Shown in pieces: positions 3,297-48,066 of a DNA stretch of 64,000 bases; the first letter of the stretch is position 1, and the number at the start of each line of letters is the position of its first letter. Source of the DNA: a virus (taxonomy: Duplodnaviria > Heunggongvirae > Uroviricota > Caudoviricetes); the IMG/VR virus record IMGVR_UViG_2700989507_000006; one strand, given 5' to 3'. A program made the position numbers and the translations under genes. The notes under the pieces were generated by a model. That model searched no databases. It was not told the origin of the DNA and worked only from the letters and a program-made list of their open reading frames with translations.

Positions 3297-4097
3297 TTAG
3301 CGCGTTGCCGCGACAGGTACCAGCACACCAGCATCAAGCAATCGCTTCATCAGCCACTGCTGACCTTTGCCGGTTATACGAGTCGTGAAAGAAATCCTGC
3401 TTCCATTGCTTGTATCGATCACGGTTTCTTTAAGGGTGAAATACCCACGGGATATGTATTCTTGTTTGGGGACGTTCCTGCGTTCACCGGTTGCGATCAG
3501 AATTCCGTTATCACGCAACCAGGTGAAGAGATAGTTTTGGCCCAGGCCGAGCACTTTGGCATAGTTGCCGATTAGAACCCCGCTGGCGGTAGCAACGCGT
3601 TCGGCGAATTCGACTTTAGGTGCATCCATAAGCATTTTTTGCTCCAGCCGTTGCTTTTGCTCTGCCAGGTCGGCAGCCAAACGGAGAGCTTCAGGGAGAC
3701 TCTGCGGAATAGCAGGTTGTAATCTTCCGGCTCGATAGTCGATAAATGTCTGGTTTACCTTCAGCCGAAACGCGGGAGAAATCCAGCCTGCGTACTCCAC
3801 AGCGAGCAATTCATGGGCAAAAGTGCCGCCGCCACGGCCTTCGAACGAAACTATGCAATTCTGCATAGTTTCTTTTTCAAGCTCTTCGATGAGCTGTTTT
3901 GCTGACAGCGTTCTTAGCCATTGAGCTGGCGCTTTATGGGCACCGAGTCCGCTCGCTCTGTGTAGAGCATTAAGGTTGTAACGGCCAGCGCGGTCGGTCG
4001 TAATTTCAACACCACAAATAACGGGCAGAGTGGTTGAAGGATCGACATTTTGATGAAGGTTTGATATATTCATATCCGCATTGAATGTTTGTTGCAT
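3297..4097 (-). CDS. kilA: KilA (KilA-N domain plus antirepressor-type C-terminal domain)
   Basis: 266 aa; N-terminus matches the KilA-N domain pattern; C-terminal about 110 aa is paralogous to the C-terminus of the next gene; C1 operator immediately upstream. Confidence 0.65.
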   Translation of the reverse strand: MQQTFNADMNISNLHQNVDPSTTLPVICGVEITTDRAGRYNLNALHRASGLGAHKAPAQWLRTLSAKQLIEELEKETMQNCIVSFEGRGGGTFAHELLAVEYAGWISPAFRLKVNQTFIDYRAGRLQPAIPQSLPEALRLAADLAEQKQRLEQKMLMDAPKVEFAERVATASGVLIGNYAKVLGLGQNYLFTWLRDNGILIATGERRNVPKQEYISRGYFTLKETVIDTSNGSRISFTTRITGKGQQWLMKRLLDAGVLVPVAATR

Positions 4098-4166: not shown

Positions 4167-4183
4167 AAATTTATTAGAGCAAA
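4167..4183. promoter_or_regulatory. C1 repressor operator (16/17 match to AAATTTATTAGAGCAAT)
   Basis: aaatttattagagcaaa upstream of the kilA start; matches the position of the P1 kilA-repL operator. Confidence 0.6.
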
Positions 4184-4260: not shown

Positions 4261-5670
4261 TTAACCTATTGCTACTGGTTTTAACAAACCAGCATCAAGT
4301 AGCTTGCGAGTTAACCACTGCTGGCCTTTACCCGTTAATTGGGGCGTCAGCCGTATCTGATAGCCATTTTCATCATCCAGCACCACTTCTTTCACCGTGA
4401 AATACCCGGCGTTGATGTACTGTTGGCGCGGTACGTTTTTGCGCGCACCAAAAGCCATGAGAATGCCGTTCTGGCGCAACCATGAGAAAAGGGCGTTTTG
4501 CTTAAGTCCAACGACCTTTGCAAAGTTCCCGATCAGGATTCCATTAGCCACTGATACCCGATCGGCAAAATCGACTTTAGGGGCTGCGGCCACCAGCTGC
4601 TGATTTAGCTGGTGGGTTTTCTGTTCCAGTAGCTGCTTTTGTTCAGCCAGCTCGGCAGCCAGGCGCAGAGCTTCGGGAAGCGTCTGGGGGATTGCGACCG
4701 GTTGCTGTTCTTTTTGCCGGAAGTAGCTGTCTTCCAGTTTTTCAAAGAATGCCCACGCTTGCTCTGTGTCTACGATCTTAGACATGCGTGCCGCTCCGCG
4801 TTCGGTCCAGAGTATTAAGGATCTGGTCTTGGGGGAAATTTGCAGCTCGCTAAAAGATAGTCGCAAACTTTTTATCTCATCTCCTTTGATTTTAAAGAAG
4901 TGTTTACCCTCTACAAATCGTTCTTCATTGCGATTGTAGTTCTGCTGAATACGAATAGGTGTAGTGCCATACCCTCTAGCAAGAGTCTCGGTTGTCACGA
5001 CGCGTACTCCCTGCCATTCCAGAACGGGAATTTCATCAGGCTGATTTTCAACATTTATAGGTTCCAATGACTGAATCATGGTATGTAGCGAACGGCGGAC
5101 CGCTTTTGACTCGCGCGCGGCGACTCGCAGGGCTTGTTTGTAGGTCATGGTTATGACAACCATAGGCGTACCACCACCTGGCGGCACGGTTGCACTTTTT
5201 GTGTAACCGTCCTCACCTTCTAATTCGTCGAGTATTTTTTCGATGAATTTGTTGTTCCGAACCTCTGGTTCCCCACATAACTTACGCGCTTCATTGACCA
5301 TCTTTAACAGTGTCTGGCTGTCGATTGTGTCTCCGGTGGTGGGGATGACATTCACGGCTGGTGCTGGCGTTGCTGAAGCAACAGGTGCTGGTTTTTTAAC
5401 ATTCAAATTATTACTGGTCATTCTATGTGCCTCCTTTCTCATTTCTGCTGCCACCGTTGCGTAACGTAGACGTCCTTGTTCAATCAAATAATCCCTGATC
5501 TCGGCTATCAGTAGCCTGTTGATCACAGCCTTATCTGTTCGGGTATAAAAACGTCTGGTTATCATGAAATAGTTGGCAATTGCGCCGGGGATCTCCCGTG
5601 TCGGCACACAGGCAGTATGCAGGGCGATCGCTTCGGCTATGTCATTACGGGTGACGAGAGGTTTTTTCAT
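4261..5670 (-). CDS. ant: antirepressor Ant (ORF6N-type N-terminal domain plus ANT/KilAC C-terminal domain)
   Basis: 469 aa; central region matches the ORF6N domain pattern; C-terminus matches the antirepressor C-terminal domain; start overlaps the stop of the icd-like ORF. Confidence 0.65.
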   Translation of the reverse strand: MKKPLVTRNDIAEAIALHTACVPTREIPGAIANYFMITRRFYTRTDKAVINRLLIAEIRDYLIEQGRLRYATVAAEMRKEAHRMTSNNLNVKKPAPVASATPAPAVNVIPTTGDTIDSQTLLKMVNEARKLCGEPEVRNNKFIEKILDELEGEDGYTKSATVPPGGGTPMVVITMTYKQALRVAARESKAVRRSLHTMIQSLEPINVENQPDEIPVLEWQGVRVVTTETLARGYGTTPIRIQQNYNRNEERFVEGKHFFKIKGDEIKSLRLSFSELQISPKTRSLILWTERGAARMSKIVDTEQAWAFFEKLEDSYFRQKEQQPVAIPQTLPEALRLAAELAEQKQLLEQKTHQLNQQLVAAAPKVDFADRVSVANGILIGNFAKVVGLKQNALFSWLRQNGILMAFGARKNVPRQQYINAGYFTVKEVVLDDENGYQIRLTPQLTGKGQQWLTRKLLDAGLLKPVAIG

Positions 5671-5888
5671 AAACCCCCCTGAACGTCGGCAGAGAAGGGG
5701 AGGTTCCAGTAACTAAGTGAATTGCGCGAGTTAGTTGAAAAACGGGCAGTAAAAATGCAGGGGCCATCAGGCAATTGAGAGCGTGCTTCGTCTTCTGTTG
5801 CTGCGATAACGAAGTGATAGTGGTGTTTTTTACAGGAATAGAAACGCCAGATGAATTCTTGGCGTGCGCAAGGATTGGCATTAACCAT
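5667..5888 (-). CDS. icd: Icd-like small protein, translationally coupled to ant
   Basis: 73-aa ORF whose stop overlaps the ant start codon; RBS GAGG upstream; position matches P1 icd downstream of c4. Confidence 0.45.
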   Translation of the reverse strand: MVNANPCARQEFIWRFYSCKKHHYHFVIAATEDEARSQLPDGPCIFTARFSTNSRNSLSYWNLPFSADVQGGL

Positions 5889-5927
5889 AGTTACGGCCTC
5901 ACAATCAGGTTTAACAACCTGCTACCC

Positions 5928-6106
5928 GCTGCTAAACAGGTGGCAGGACGTGACGGGGTTAGCAGACTGGCGATTGTGAAACCAGCAGGCCGAAGCCTCC
6001 CCATCACGCCCCACCATAATTTGGGCGTAACGCGGTTTTACGGACACAAAAATACCGCAATATAGGATATCTGCGGCTGTCCGCACAATCATTCAGGCTG
6101 CTAAAC
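5928..6106 (-). ncRNA. c4: c4-type antisense RNA and leader region (boundaries approximate)
   Basis: 10-bp direct repeats (gtttagcagc on the transcribed strand) at 5928-5937 and 6097-6106 flank a segment containing partially complementary elements; sits between a sigma70-like promoter and icd, as in the P1 immI leader. The about 77-nt RNA itself probably lies near 5945-6025. Confidence 0.35.
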
Positions 6107-6133
6107 CCGGTCGCAGAATTTGCTACGACGGCG

Positions 6134-6162
6134 GAACTATAAGCCTGAACGATTAAAAGGTC
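6134..6162 (-). promoter_or_regulatory. sigma70-like promoter (TTGACC-17-TATAGT) reading toward c4-icd-ant
   Basis: Hexamers with 17-bp spacing read on the minus strand. Confidence 0.4.
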
Positions 6163-6202
6163 AATATGATGCGAAAAGATAGCATTCGCGACTTAAAAAT
6201 AC

Positions 6203-6219
6203 AAATTTATTAGAGCATT
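6203..6219. promoter_or_regulatory. C1 repressor operator (15-16/17)
   Basis: aaatttattagagcatt, lying between the divergent immI leader and the downstream secreted-protein gene. Confidence 0.55.
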
Positions 6220-6315
6220 ATATGCTTAATAAATACACAATTGGATCTAATAACCTCTTTTTTTTAAAGGCGAAAATATGTACCCTAAATGAGTTATAAG
6301 GCAGGTGAGGTTATA

Positions 6316-6963
6316 ATGAGAAAACTATTACTACCGTTATTATTTATGGCTGGGACTGTTAATGCAGCATCAAGCGTAAAGGAGATTTGTACCGATTATA
6401 CGAAATACCTTGGGCACGTTTACGGCTTTGCTGTCAGTCAAGACGAATCCATGCGCAAGAAGTTACTGTCAGATATGAAACGCCTTAAACTTTCTGAAGC
6501 GATGGTGCAGCAAGAACTGTATAAAGTCGCAACCAACGAAAATGCTAAATATCAATATTCTCGCCTGTTAAATCCCGACGCAAACGAGATCAATCGAAGC
6601 TCTTTCGATTATATGGTAAAGGCATGCGAAACCGCTCCTGATTTTGCTATCCCTAGCTGGGGTGTGCTGGTGGCGAGCAATGCCGTTAATAAAGAAGACG
6701 TTGGAAGAAACGGCATTGATTCAATCAGAAACGCCCCGGGAATGCGCCATCAAAACGTGCAGGGTACGCTTGAAGAGCGGGCCAGGGGGCCGGGTACAAA
6801 CTCCCCAATGGGAAACCTCTCACCAGAGGAATTGCAAGAGTATAACCAACGGATGGAGCAGTATGAGAAAGCGGCACGCGAACAAATGGAACAACAAAAG
6901 AACGGCTCACTTAATACCTTCCAGCAAGGTTTAAAAGCGCTTAATTTACCCTATGAATGGTAA
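6316..6963 (+). CDS. secreted/periplasmic protein, possible superinfection-exclusion (Sim-like) protein
   Basis: Start chosen at MRKLLLPLLFMAGTVNAASS (signal peptide) with RBS ggtgagg; ORF track starts at 6289. Shares a peptide motif with Sit (see findings). Confidence 0.6.
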   Translation: MRKLLLPLLFMAGTVNAASSVKEICTDYTKYLGHVYGFAVSQDESMRKKLLSDMKRLKLSEAMVQQELYKVATNENAKYQYSRLLNPDANEINRSSFDYMVKACETAPDFAIPSWGVLVASNAVNKEDVGRNGIDSIRNAPGMRHQNVQGTLEERARGPGTNSPMGNLSPEELQEYNQRMEQYEKAAREQMEQQKNGSLNTFQQGLKALNLPYEW

Positions 6964-7024
6964 ATATATTATGGATAACCAATTAAAATATTGATAATCG
7001 TTAATATCCAAAGGAGATAAATTA

Positions 7025-7501
7025 ATGCGCATCAAACGATTTTTTCTAATTCTTGCTTTGCTTACTCCATTTTCATCAATGGCAAATGTAAGCAAATGGT
7101 CAACCGGCGAGACTCATGGTGTTCGTTCTTATGCTGTTTCCAGCAAAGATAATTATACGCTTACATTTGAGTGCGATGTTGGATTTAATAATACGGATCC
7201 CAATCAAGTAGGAACACGACTACTCACTCTCATGAAAACAGAACCTGGCGGTGAGTCATTTGATGCTAAAAAAGAACAAATAACGCTGAAAGTTGGTGAT
7301 GATGAATATCCTATCAGTTCTATCGGTTCCTCTGTGGGTGATAGTTACTGGTATGGTTTTTGGTCAGATACCCCTGATATGGAAGTTAAAACATTCGATG
7401 CATACGTAGACGGAAAAAAAATCGCAACATTTACGCTACGTAAGGCCGCAGAGCTTTTCAACGCGGCACCTGAAGATGGCTGCCTGAAGCGCGCAAAATG
7501 A
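7025..7501 (+). CDS. secreted protein of unknown function
   Basis: 158 aa with N-terminal signal peptide MRIKRFFLILALLTPFSSMA; RBS aaggagat upstream. Confidence 0.55.
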   Translation: MRIKRFFLILALLTPFSSMANVSKWSTGETHGVRSYAVSSKDNYTLTFECDVGFNNTDPNQVGTRLLTLMKTEPGGESFDAKKEQITLKVGDDEYPISSIGSSVGDSYWYGFWSDTPDMEVKTFDAYVDGKKIATFTLRKAAELFNAAPEDGCLKRAK

Positions 7502-7535: not shown

Positions 7536-8126
<591 letters not shown>

Positions 8127-32313: not shown

Positions 32314-32330
32314 AAATTAATTAGAGCAAT
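32314..32330. promoter_or_regulatory. C1 repressor operator (16/17)
   Basis: aaattaattagagcaat between the divergent ssb and lyz genes. Confidence 0.55.
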
Positions 32331-33312: not shown

Positions 33313-36043
<2,731 letters not shown>

Positions 36044-47966: not shown

Positions 47967-47983
47967 AGAATTATTAGAGCAAT
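47967..47983. promoter_or_regulatory. C1 repressor operator (15/17)
   Basis: agaattattagagcaat upstream of coi-c1. Confidence 0.55.
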
Positions 47984-48049
47984 AAATTTTGAGAGAAAAA
48001 TCCCACTCCACCAGCCAAAAACTGGATTGTTTTTCATAGTTGTTTGACA

Positions 48050-48066
48050 ATTGCTCTAATAAATTA
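48050..48066. promoter_or_regulatory. C1 repressor operator (16/17) overlapping a TTGACA promoter element
   Basis: ttgacaATTGCTCTAATAAATTAtagt. Confidence 0.6.

Follow-up and report, generated by a model that had tools for sequence, protein, structure and literature searches.

A predicted P7-type immI control region and its c4 antisense RNA in a P1/P7-family phage-plasmid

The closest described relatives of the locus considered here are the immI regions of the phages P1 and P7, where synthesis of the antirepressor Ant is repressed by c4 (PMC8546580). As summarized in PMC5320573, which cites Citron & Schuster and Hartmann 1995, c4 is an RNA excised from its own leader by RNase P to a length of 77 +/- 1 nt; processing from a longer transcript by RNase P likewise figures in PMC2190699. 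The former source, citing Citron & Schuster 1990, 1992 and Hartmann 1995, further credits an element termed b' with occlusion of the ribosome-binding site (RBS) and a second one, a', with specificity. A comparable order is displayed by the isrK-orf45/STnc1160-anrP locus of Gifsy-1 (Hershko-Shalev et al. 2016, PMC4825925), which combines the Hfq-binding Salmonella small RNA IsrK (of the a1b1 type), a C4-type RNA, a2, a b2 abutting the Shine-Dalgarno sequence and an AUGA-coupled antirepressor. It differs from the present locus in having a strong terminator (U6) after IsrK, in lacking icd, in a short ORF that overlaps the C4 element itself and in its unrelated boxes (a = UUGGCG). In its published model the short IsrK activates, and the processed C4-like RNA has no repressor role (PMC4825925). 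The same layout with unrelated boxes (a = GUGGAAA, b = UCACCAAAG) is also seen in an Stx2 phage. Finally, in P4 (seqA/CI RNA/seqC) and N15 (immA CA RNA; compared here by BLAST match alone) a small RNA processed from the leader pairs with boxes situated up- and downstream on the same transcript, the reported outcome being premature transcription termination rather than RBS occlusion.

Against this background we examined a 64-kb stretch of DNA, referred to as the window in its entirety, and found that its minus strand from 6219 to 5667 represents, with very little doubt, an immI control region of P7 specificity belonging to a phage-plasmid of the P1/P7 family, in which a c4 antisense RNA would silence the antirepressor. 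An initial annotation of the window had claimed a P1-like c4/icd/ant arrangement and proposed an alignment with the P1 and P7 immI leaders as a check; that alignment upheld the arrangement, with a specificity of the P7 rather than the P1 type, and every curated P1 and P7 immI feature could be placed on the window (Table 1). The transcript order on the minus strand is a1b1 leader, c4, a2, b2 with the Shine-Dalgarno sequence, icd and ant1/ant2. In sequence comparisons the identity of the region is 95.6% with P1 and 99.4% with P7; 600 plasmid records contain it. In most plasmid records c4 and the boxes lack annotation.

Table 1. Positions of the immI features in the window
Feature	Position	Strand	Basis and remarks
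Predicted C1 repressor operator Op51 (Oc4), AATGCTCTAATAAATTT	6203..6219	-	same sequence as the operator in the P1 record NC_005856
Predicted promoter P51a (P2c4), C1-controlled; -35 TTGTAT 6204..6199, -10 TATCTT 6181..6176	6176..6204	-	transferred from P1 annotation by alignment
Predicted promoter P51b (P1c4), TTGACC-17 nt-TATAGT	6136..6164	-	consensus scan, 10/12 matches
a1b1 leader, IsrK relative: hairpin 1, a1 hairpin, b1, terminator-like hairpin 6077..6054, then UAUUUUU 6054..6048	6048..6129	-	Rfam c4-a1b1 and isrK
a1 box TTAGCAG, P7 type, in loop of second hairpin	6098..6104	-	complementary to a'; all cells pair in 21 leaders; 2/7 pairs compensatory
b1 box GATTGTG, P7 type	6084..6090	-	complementary to b'; all cells pair; 6/7 pairs change on both sides
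c4 antisense RNA, 77 nt	5939..6015	-	boundaries transferred from P1/P7 misc_RNA annotations
b' loop CACAATC, in 9-nt hairpin loop of c4	5972..5978	-	unpaired in minimum-energy and centroid folds; complementary to b1/b2
a' element CTGCTAA, single-stranded joint of c4 multiloop	5959..5965	-	unpaired in fold; complementary to a1/a2
a2 target box TTAGCAG	5929..5935	-	all a':a2 cells pair; 2/7 pairs compensatory
Candidate cis partner of a2 or a1, GUUGUUAAAC; wobble complement of the a-box 10-mer fitting either a-type	5909..5918	-	plus-strand match, 2 mismatches
b2 target box GATTGTGA	5899..5906	-	99.3% of b':b2 cells pair; 6/7 pairs compensatory
icd, 73 aa, cell-division inhibitor; upstream ORF coupling ant translation	5667..5888	-	ORF list; P7 Icd 73/73 identical
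ant1, 469 aa	4261..5670	-	ORF list and sequence
Internal ant2 start	5421	-	preceded by AAGGAGG; conserved

P7 (AF503408 / NC_050152) and the window share c4 (77/77), Icd (73/73) and the six specificity boxes without a single difference, while their 334-nt leaders between the operator and the icd ATG differ at 4 positions. The two diverge in that the DNA upstream of the operator in the window follows P1, that the neighboring cargo genes are unlike both P7 upf50.0/50.5 and P1 simABC, and that the Ant of P7 has 348 aa. P1 (NC_005856) presents the same architecture feature for feature, including an identical Op51 and two identical promoters, with different boxes (a = TTGACAG, b = GTTAGTG); correspondingly, four of the 5 differences from P1 c4 lie in boxes, the remaining one being a change from G-C to G-U in a stem. 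Given the identity of c4 and Icd to those of phage P7, the immI region of the window is an ordinary one, and represents an already known, textbook regulator.

At its upstream end the region contains Op51, which fits the operator consensus at 16/17 positions, overlapping the -35 element of P51a, followed by the second promoter P51b; both promoters precede c4 on the same strand. This agrees with the earlier description of a TTGACC-17-TATAGT promoter and a C1 operator upstream of the leader. P51a has the P1 sequence, while P51b, which aligns base for base with the annotated P51b of P1, is devoid of an operator. Operator-like sites with at most 3 mismatches number 11 in the window against 0.22 expected. 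At the other end, the leader runs into the 73-aa icd-like ORF, whose TGA shares bases with the ant ATG in the sequence ATGA (5670..5667), an overlap that had been noted. The product shows 2 differences from P1 Icd and matches the NCBIfam model phage_ICD_like (NF033153) with 52.7 bits against a cut-off of 25; a search for a Pfam family for Icd found none. Ant matches P1 Ant1 with 81-84% identity in its N- and C-terminal parts and, relative to both P1 and P7 Ant1, carries an ORF6N insert of ~110 aa, so that the protein made from this operon would differ from the characterized Ant.

The central component is c4 itself. A search with the Rfam C4 model (RF01695) recovered 6021..5936 on the minus strand across the full model (1-87) with 69.6 bits against a gathering threshold of 45. 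The covariance-model search recommended by the initial annotation hence gave two hits above gathering, C4 and the c4-a1b1 model discussed below; weak Rfam matches over c4 to mir-1231 (20.6 bits) and bacterial SRP (18.2 bits) were dismissed as chance. RNA folding, the other computational check suggested, yielded a stable structure for the 77 nt (-44.9 kcal/mol, z = -5.73) in which the minimum-energy and centroid folds agree: a long closing stem encloses two internal hairpins, the loop of one of them exposing b', whereas a' is left unpaired. The RNA limits and pairing, which had been considered impossible to fix by eye, can thus be given as 6015..5939, with a' pairing with a2, b' with b2, and the same two elements also with a1 and b1. 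All cells of the three c4 helices pair in 21 distinct leaders, yet the helices hardly vary; they are accordingly backed by the Rfam model and by thermodynamics, not by covariation in this set.

Upstream of c4 lies the a1b1 leader, whose 5' end corresponds to the predicted transcription start of P51b. The c4-a1b1 model (RF03163) matched 6142..6090 with 55.5 bits against a gathering threshold of 46.7. The entire leader further aligned with the full isrK model (RF01394, 1-77) with 43.7 bits (E = 2.5e-8), a score below the gathering threshold of 50, for which reason we treat it as a relative of IsrK and not as a member of that family. Immediately after b1 there is a hairpin followed by a U-run, both invariant in all 21 leaders. 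In the P1/P7 family this U-tract is interrupted (GCGGUAUUUUU), as opposed to U6-U7 in the IsrK loci, and the hairpin loop has 12 nt; owing to these two features a simple terminator scan found no Rho-independent terminator at the a1b1 leader. In the Gifsy-1 locus the isrK (79.3 bits) and c4-a1b1 (48.1 bits, at or above gathering) matches fall on the same DNA, with a C4 match (69 bits) just downstream, and the validated IsrK pairs G28-C162 and G31-C159 (PMC4825925) are a1:a' pairs. We did not find this equation of IsrK with a1b1 in the literature searched.

Speculatively, the a1b1 leader might be the counterpart of IsrK, an anti-antisense element that would counter c4 by pairing with a' and b', in cis or, as a short terminated RNA, in trans, and help to switch icd and ant on. 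Under this possible reading, which we hold with limited confidence, an IsrK-type RNA of ~82 nt at the start of the P51b transcript, either terminated by itself or as part of the full-length RNA, would compete with a2/b2 for c4 and relieve the repression of icd/ant, much as short IsrK activates anrP of Gifsy-1. The full-length isrK match points in this direction, as do the coincidence of the isrK, c4-a1b1 and C4 matches and of the validated pairs in Gifsy-1, the approximately 140-fold increase in anrP translation by IsrK supplied in trans (PMC4825925), and the retention of a1/b1 complementarity to c4 in 21/21 distinct leaders. On the other hand, the isrK score stays under gathering, and with its interrupted U-tract and 12-nt loop the short RNA may hardly accumulate. 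To our knowledge, no short a1b1 RNA has been reported in P1. Were this reading true, immI would be a switch of three RNA modules, one serving as decoy, one as repressor and one as target; a role would be found for the a1/b1 boxes, long left without explanation, and the published work on IsrK and on c4 would concern a single system. The a1b1 position of IsrK in Gifsy-1 and the location of its published compensatory mutations on a1:a' pairs provide a testable function for a1/b1 of P1 and P7.

A rather unlikely alternative, though one compatible with the decoy function and not exclusive of it, is that c4 pairing with nascent a1/b1 promotes termination after b1, so that the operon would regulate itself by attenuation in the manner of the P4 CI RNA and the N15 CA RNA. 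Ravin et al. reportedly described the termination mechanism of N15 CA RNA in 1999, and we know of no evidence for attenuation in P1 or P7. The attenuation reading is favored by the hairpin and U-run adjoining b1 in 21/21 leaders, by shared sequence between the a1b1 module and the N15 cA and phiKO2 regions (BLAST), and by the precedent of P4, where CI RNA pairs with seqA and seqC to cause premature termination and IsrK is a structural homologue of SeqA (PMC4825925); against it stands a terminator that is weak by sequence.

The starting observation in the region was a repeated 10-mer, GTTTAGCAGC, which an exact search of the window located precisely twice, at 5928-5937 and again at 6097-6106, each time on the minus strand as previously described (0.14 copies expected; 1/100 shuffles reached 2). 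The two copies contain the boxes a2 and a1. Of the shorter partial repeats said to lie between them, the element near 5958-5966 is real; it is, though, not a direct partial repeat but the reverse complement of the 10-mer, with a' (CTGCTAA, 5965..5959) falling within a plus-strand match of 2 mismatches at 5957-5966. The one placed at 5991-6000 disappears, as this stretch has no match to the 10-mer with up to 2 mismatches and corresponds to a hairpin of c4 with a tetraloop, GGCUUCGGCC. In turn, the second antisense loop b' (5978..5972) and its targets b1/b2 had been overlooked.

These boxes were evaluated in 84 related leaders, which display 2 a-types, 5 b-types and 8 combinations thereof, and a1 = a2 = rc(a') together with b1 = b2 = rc(b') holds in 83/84 of them. 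Pair cells and compensatory changes were counted over the 21 distinct leaders: in the a'/b' pairings 99.3-100% of the cells are paired with either target set, a figure that becomes 99.9-100% when the complete tested structure is counted, and compensatory pairs amount to 8/14 for a2/b2 and equally 8/14 for a1/b1. None of 500 shuffles reached the observed covariation score, and controls obtained by sliding were only 31-55% paired. In the window the Watson-Crick matches are 7/7 for a and 8/8 for b, and the complementarity of a'/b' to a2/b2 extends to the Shine-Dalgarno sequence, the final two bases of b2 being the start of the icd GAGG (5900..5897). Loop-only duplexes with the cognate boxes have energies of -9.3 and -11.1 kcal/mol versus -3.7 and -4.6 with P1 boxes, a gain of 5.6-6.5 kcal/mol per box. 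The loop-only form was adopted since whole-molecule RNAduplex and cofold calculations of c4 against its targets were uninformative (duplexfold ignores the c4 fold, and the cofold ddG was 0).

This covariation also decides against the notion, to which we attach next to no probability, that the repeats match by chance or serve to bind a protein (as iterons do), with no functional RNA between them. It is true that single 7-mer triples of the form X..rc(X)..X are common in the window (19 versus 2-12 in mononucleotide shuffles), which makes their count a poor discriminator by itself, and that the 10-mer with up to 2 mismatches is no commoner than chance (63 observed versus 57). However, two interleaved triples occur here within one 200-nt stretch, throughout the 8 classes each change in either box is strictly compensated in all three of its copies, and the covariance-model matches and the identity to the experimentally characterized P7 c4 remain to be accounted for. 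Moreover, a protein-site model predicts identical changes in the direct repeats without the complementary change in the inverted copy, and is refuted by the covariation. Equally hard to credit is a c4 acting as a small protein repressor: although two ORFs, one of 56 aa (6092..5922) and one of 38 aa (6007..5891), run across the region, c4 is listed as a CDS in an old GenBank entry (X15639) and the Gifsy-1 counterpart orf45 is translated (PMC4825925), variation falls precisely at the positions where RNA-RNA complementarity is preserved, the remainder of the 77 nt being near-invariant, and c4 is presented as a processed RNA in the publications cited by PMC5320573 and PMC8546580.

A further element that might pair with the a boxes is the candidate at 5909-5918. 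In the minimum-energy fold of the full leader it forms a long-range helix with the a1 region, and in that of the processed mRNA a 10-bp hairpin with a2. Its helices pair in 94-97% of cells, compatibility being provided by A-U/G-U wobble, with a single compensatory cell; as there is essentially no compensatory change, we do not claim this helix.

Taken together with the P1 and P7 precedents, these features permit a model in which one transcript would arise from two promoters, P51a with its -35 under the C1 operator Op51 and the operator-free P51b. The 77-nt c4 would be cut from its own leader, its closing stem displaying the b' loop and the single-stranded a', and these two elements would then pair with the a2 and b2 boxes of transcripts of this kind. 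Since b2 runs into the icd Shine-Dalgarno sequence, translation of icd is proposed to be blocked; as ant is coupled to icd via ATGA, no antirepressor would be made, and C1 repression and lysogenic immunity would consequently be kept. By analogy, we infer that the processing, the RBS occlusion and the repression take place in this particular plasmid; no feature of its sequence speaks against this account. Rho-dependent polarity on ant is said to have been described by Biere, Citron & Schuster in 1992.

In this model the two 7-nt boxes would set the specificity. Their identity to those of P7 predicts, at the level of sequence, P7-type specificity, so that ant of the P7 type, but not that of the P1 type, is expected to be repressed by the element. 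From the published comparison of P1 and P7 (PMC5320573, PMC6906374), it and P1 should be heteroimmune at immI.

For the window as such the finding is of little importance, the RNA and the first gene product being identical to those of phage P7; in terms of annotation, it allows the plasmid to be assigned to the P7-type immI immunity. More generally, the a and b boxes reassort freely, which implies a number of immI immunity types well beyond the two so far examined by experiment. The box combinations of P1-like phage-plasmids, at least eight and fully concerted, offer a ready natural resource for testing antisense specificity and heteroimmunity.

The minus strand was read over 5300-6700, and the whole window was searched with Rfam models at their gathering thresholds. 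On that strand the search recovered a C4 antisense RNA at 6021..5936 (69.6 bits; gathering 45), as anticipated in the initial annotation, together with a c4-a1b1 element at 6142..6090 (55.5 bits; gathering 46.7). BLAST of 5600-6300 matched P1 with 95.6% identity across the entire query, P7 with 99.4% identity over 88% of the query, and 600 plasmid records, mainly from E. coli. The proposed alignment with the immI leaders also succeeded: curated P1 and P7 annotations were carried onto the window via a three-way alignment, each string being checked in the window (table below). The c4 and Icd of P7 are identical to those of the window (77/77 and 73/73 positions respectively), an identity that argues for P7 specificity of the window element. 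Relative to P1 c4 there are five differences, two each in b' and a' plus a G-C to G-U change in the stem; upstream of the operator the window resembles P1, not P7. Thus, the observation is real and the P1-like c4/icd/ant arrangement was correctly interpreted, the region being the already-known P7-type immI region.

Features of the immI region (all on the minus strand)
Feature	Position	Sequence or length
Op51 (C1 operator)	6219..6203	AATGCTCTAATAAATTT
P51a	-35 at 6204..6199; -10 at 6181..6176	
P51b	6164..6136	TTGACC-17-TATAGT
a1	6104..6098	TTAGCAG
b1	6090..6084	GATTGTG
c4	6015..5939	77 nt
b'	5978..5972	CACAATC
a'	5965..5959	CTGCTAA
a2	5935..5929	TTAGCAG
b2	5906..5899	GATTGTGA
icd Shine-Dalgarno	5900..5897	GAGG
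icd	5888..5667	73 aa
ant1	5670..4261	
ant2 start	5421	

The promoter, the C1 operator and the icd-like ORF, whose TGA stop and the start codon of a 469-aa ORF overlap in ATGA, were found as first described. So was the repeated 10-mer GTTTAGCAGC, which occurs on the minus strand at 5928-5937 and 6097-6106 and nowhere else in the window (0.14 copies expected by chance; two copies reached in 1/100 shuffles). Of the two partial matches placed between these copies, the element near 5958-5966 exists, but as the reverse complement of the 10-mer rather than a direct match; the stretch at 5991-6000 bears no resemblance to it, and is a tetraloop hairpin within the c4 RNA. Sites resembling the C1 operator with at most three mismatches number 11 in the window versus 0.22 expected (4167-4183, 32314-32330 and 47967-48066 among others); one of the 11, of Op53 type, precedes kilA (3297-4097) on its upstream side, and several cluster at 45.2-48.5 kb.

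Folding of the 77-nt c4 RNA, as had been suggested, yields a stable structure (-44.9 kcal/mol; z = -5.73) matched by none of 200 shuffles, and the minimum-energy and centroid structures coincide. The predicted fold comprises a 17-bp closing stem, a GGCUUCGGCC hairpin and a second hairpin with b' within its 9-nt loop, with a' in a 7-nt single-stranded joint. Modeled loop-only duplex energies favor the cognate over the P1 boxes (a box, -9.3 vs -3.7 kcal/mol; b box, -11.1 vs -4.6 kcal/mol).

To this we added a comparative set of 80 Icd-encoding IMG/VR loci plus P1, P7 and D6, with 84 sequences scored. Differences among the six boxes are fully concerted and define eight classes, which combine two a-types (TTAGCAG, TTGACAG) with five b-types (GATTGTG, GTTAGTG, ACTTACG, ACGAATG, ACTTGTG); in 83/84 sequences a1 and a2 equal the reverse complement of a', and b1 and b2 that of b'. 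In an alignment of 21 distinct leaders, 100% of a':a2, a':a1 and b':b1 cells and 99.3% of b':b2 cells are paired, with both-side changes in 8/14 pairs for each target set (a2/b2 and a1/b1). None of 500 shuffles reached the observed covariation score, and sliding the partner by 1-3 columns lowers pairing to 31-55%. This pairing pattern is strong evidence for maintained complementarity between the c4 loops and each of the four target boxes. Within c4, the internal helices are almost invariant in the 21 leaders, and are therefore supported here by the Rfam model and thermodynamics.

The boxes also reassort, with 8/10 possible a-type/b-type combinations seen (L003-L083: 80 IMG/VR loci with P1, P7 and D6), including P7-type a with P1-type b in 7 loci and P1-type a with P7-type b in 10; as far as our literature search reached, experimental characterization was found for the P1 and P7 box pairs only. 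The sole leader of the 84 with mismatched boxes, L008 (IMGVR_UViG_2565956613_000015, a 4.9-kb contig), combines b1/b' of ACGAATG/CATTCGT with a P1-type b2, GTTAGTG. Natural recombination between b' and b2 may have produced it, in which case weakened c4 control is predicted; alternatively, it may be an assembly chimera. Between a2 and b2, the minus strand at 5909-5918 (GUUGUUAAAC) carries another complement of the a-box 10-mer, the third, which tolerates wobble and through G.U pairs can match P7-type and P1-type a boxes alike. In predicted folds this stretch forms either a 10-bp hairpin with a2, when the mRNA is processed, or a long-range helix with a1, when the leader is complete; the pair counts (94-97% paired) fit this but reveal no real covariation.

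In the published model, RNase P releases a c4 RNA of 77 +/- 1 nt from the operon's own leader; the ribosome-binding site is partially covered by the b' loop, and specificity comes from a' (PMC5320573). The sequence anatomy of the window agrees with this model: going by those literature-derived steps and the features seen here, c4 would be excised from the immI leader and repress ant. Biere, Citron and Schuster (1992) reportedly described Rho-dependent polarity on ant.

The window Ant (4261-5670, minus) has 469 aa versus 347 aa in P1, whose Ant1 is 81-84% identical to it in the N- and C-terminal parts; Pfam finds an ORF6N domain (73.7 bits) in an insert spanning residues ~200-300. The internal start codon for Ant2, an ATG preceded by AAGGAGG, is conserved. 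Between immI and a pmgC/tubA homologue (7560-8126), the plus strand at 6289-7501 codes for two ORFs with signal-peptide-like N-termini: one of 224 aa, which matches PTPlike_phytase weakly (26.5 bits, just below the cut-off of 27), and one of 158 aa with no family match. The same slot holds simABC in P1 and upf50.0/upf50.5 in P7, and these differing contents mark it as a variable cargo slot. An Rfam sok antitoxin RNA at 1939-2113, minus (94.7 bits; gathering 59), implies that a toxin-antitoxin locus of the hok/sok type lies downstream of kilA/repL.

Among the phage matches, the most distant are those to an Stx2 phage and two wastewater contigs; in these, Rfam places isrK instead of c4-a1b1 just upstream of C4. 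At these loci the box logic is preserved in unrelated sequences: the Stx2 phage has copies of a (GUGGAAA) and b (UCACCAAAG) both upstream and downstream of C4, and its b2 adjoins the Shine-Dalgarno. In Gifsy-1, isrK (79.3 bits at 34316..34240) and c4-a1b1 (48.1 bits, at least gathering) overlap on the same DNA, with C4 (69 bits) ~25 nt downstream. With 34316 as +1, all nucleotides named by Hershko-Shalev et al. 2016 (PMC4825925) agree with the sequence (C18, G28, G31, AUG107, AUG119, C159, C162, G173, C175), and the pairs validated there, G28-C162 and G31-C159, fall on a1 (UUGGCG, 26-31) pairing with a' (CGCCAA, 159-164). By the overlapping matches and these pairs, IsrK corresponds to a1b1, and the 'orf45/STnc1160' of that study to the C4 homologue. 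That study compared IsrK with P4 SeqA without mentioning P1 c4 (PMC4825925), a 2025 review enters IsrK and c4 separately, and an APSE phage study gives both Rfam matches without relating them; we found no paper making the link, but literature coverage was incomplete and priority is not claimed. Several lambdoid phage records carry the isrK and C4 RNAs inside a long CDS called 'antirepressor' or 'transcriptional regulator' (e.g. L084, AP012536.1, 477-1628; L087, Gifsy-1, 34131-34329); the annotated CDS start probably lies too far upstream, taking in the RNA leader.

With E-value reporting, the window itself matches the full isrK model at 6129..6048 (43.7 bits, E = 2.5e-8, below the gathering of 50), starting at the predicted P51b transcription start and closing with the hairpin at 6077..6054 and its UAUUUUU tail. 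In true IsrK loci the run of six or seven U is unbroken, and the weakened terminator of the window makes short-RNA accumulation there uncertain. By analogy, a1/b1 of the window might counteract c4 as a decoy or activator, on the Gifsy-1 pattern, or serve as a c4-dependent attenuation site, as in P4 and N15. Two modest by-products of this analysis, both open to testing, are the IsrK link and the combinatorial repertoire of boxes.
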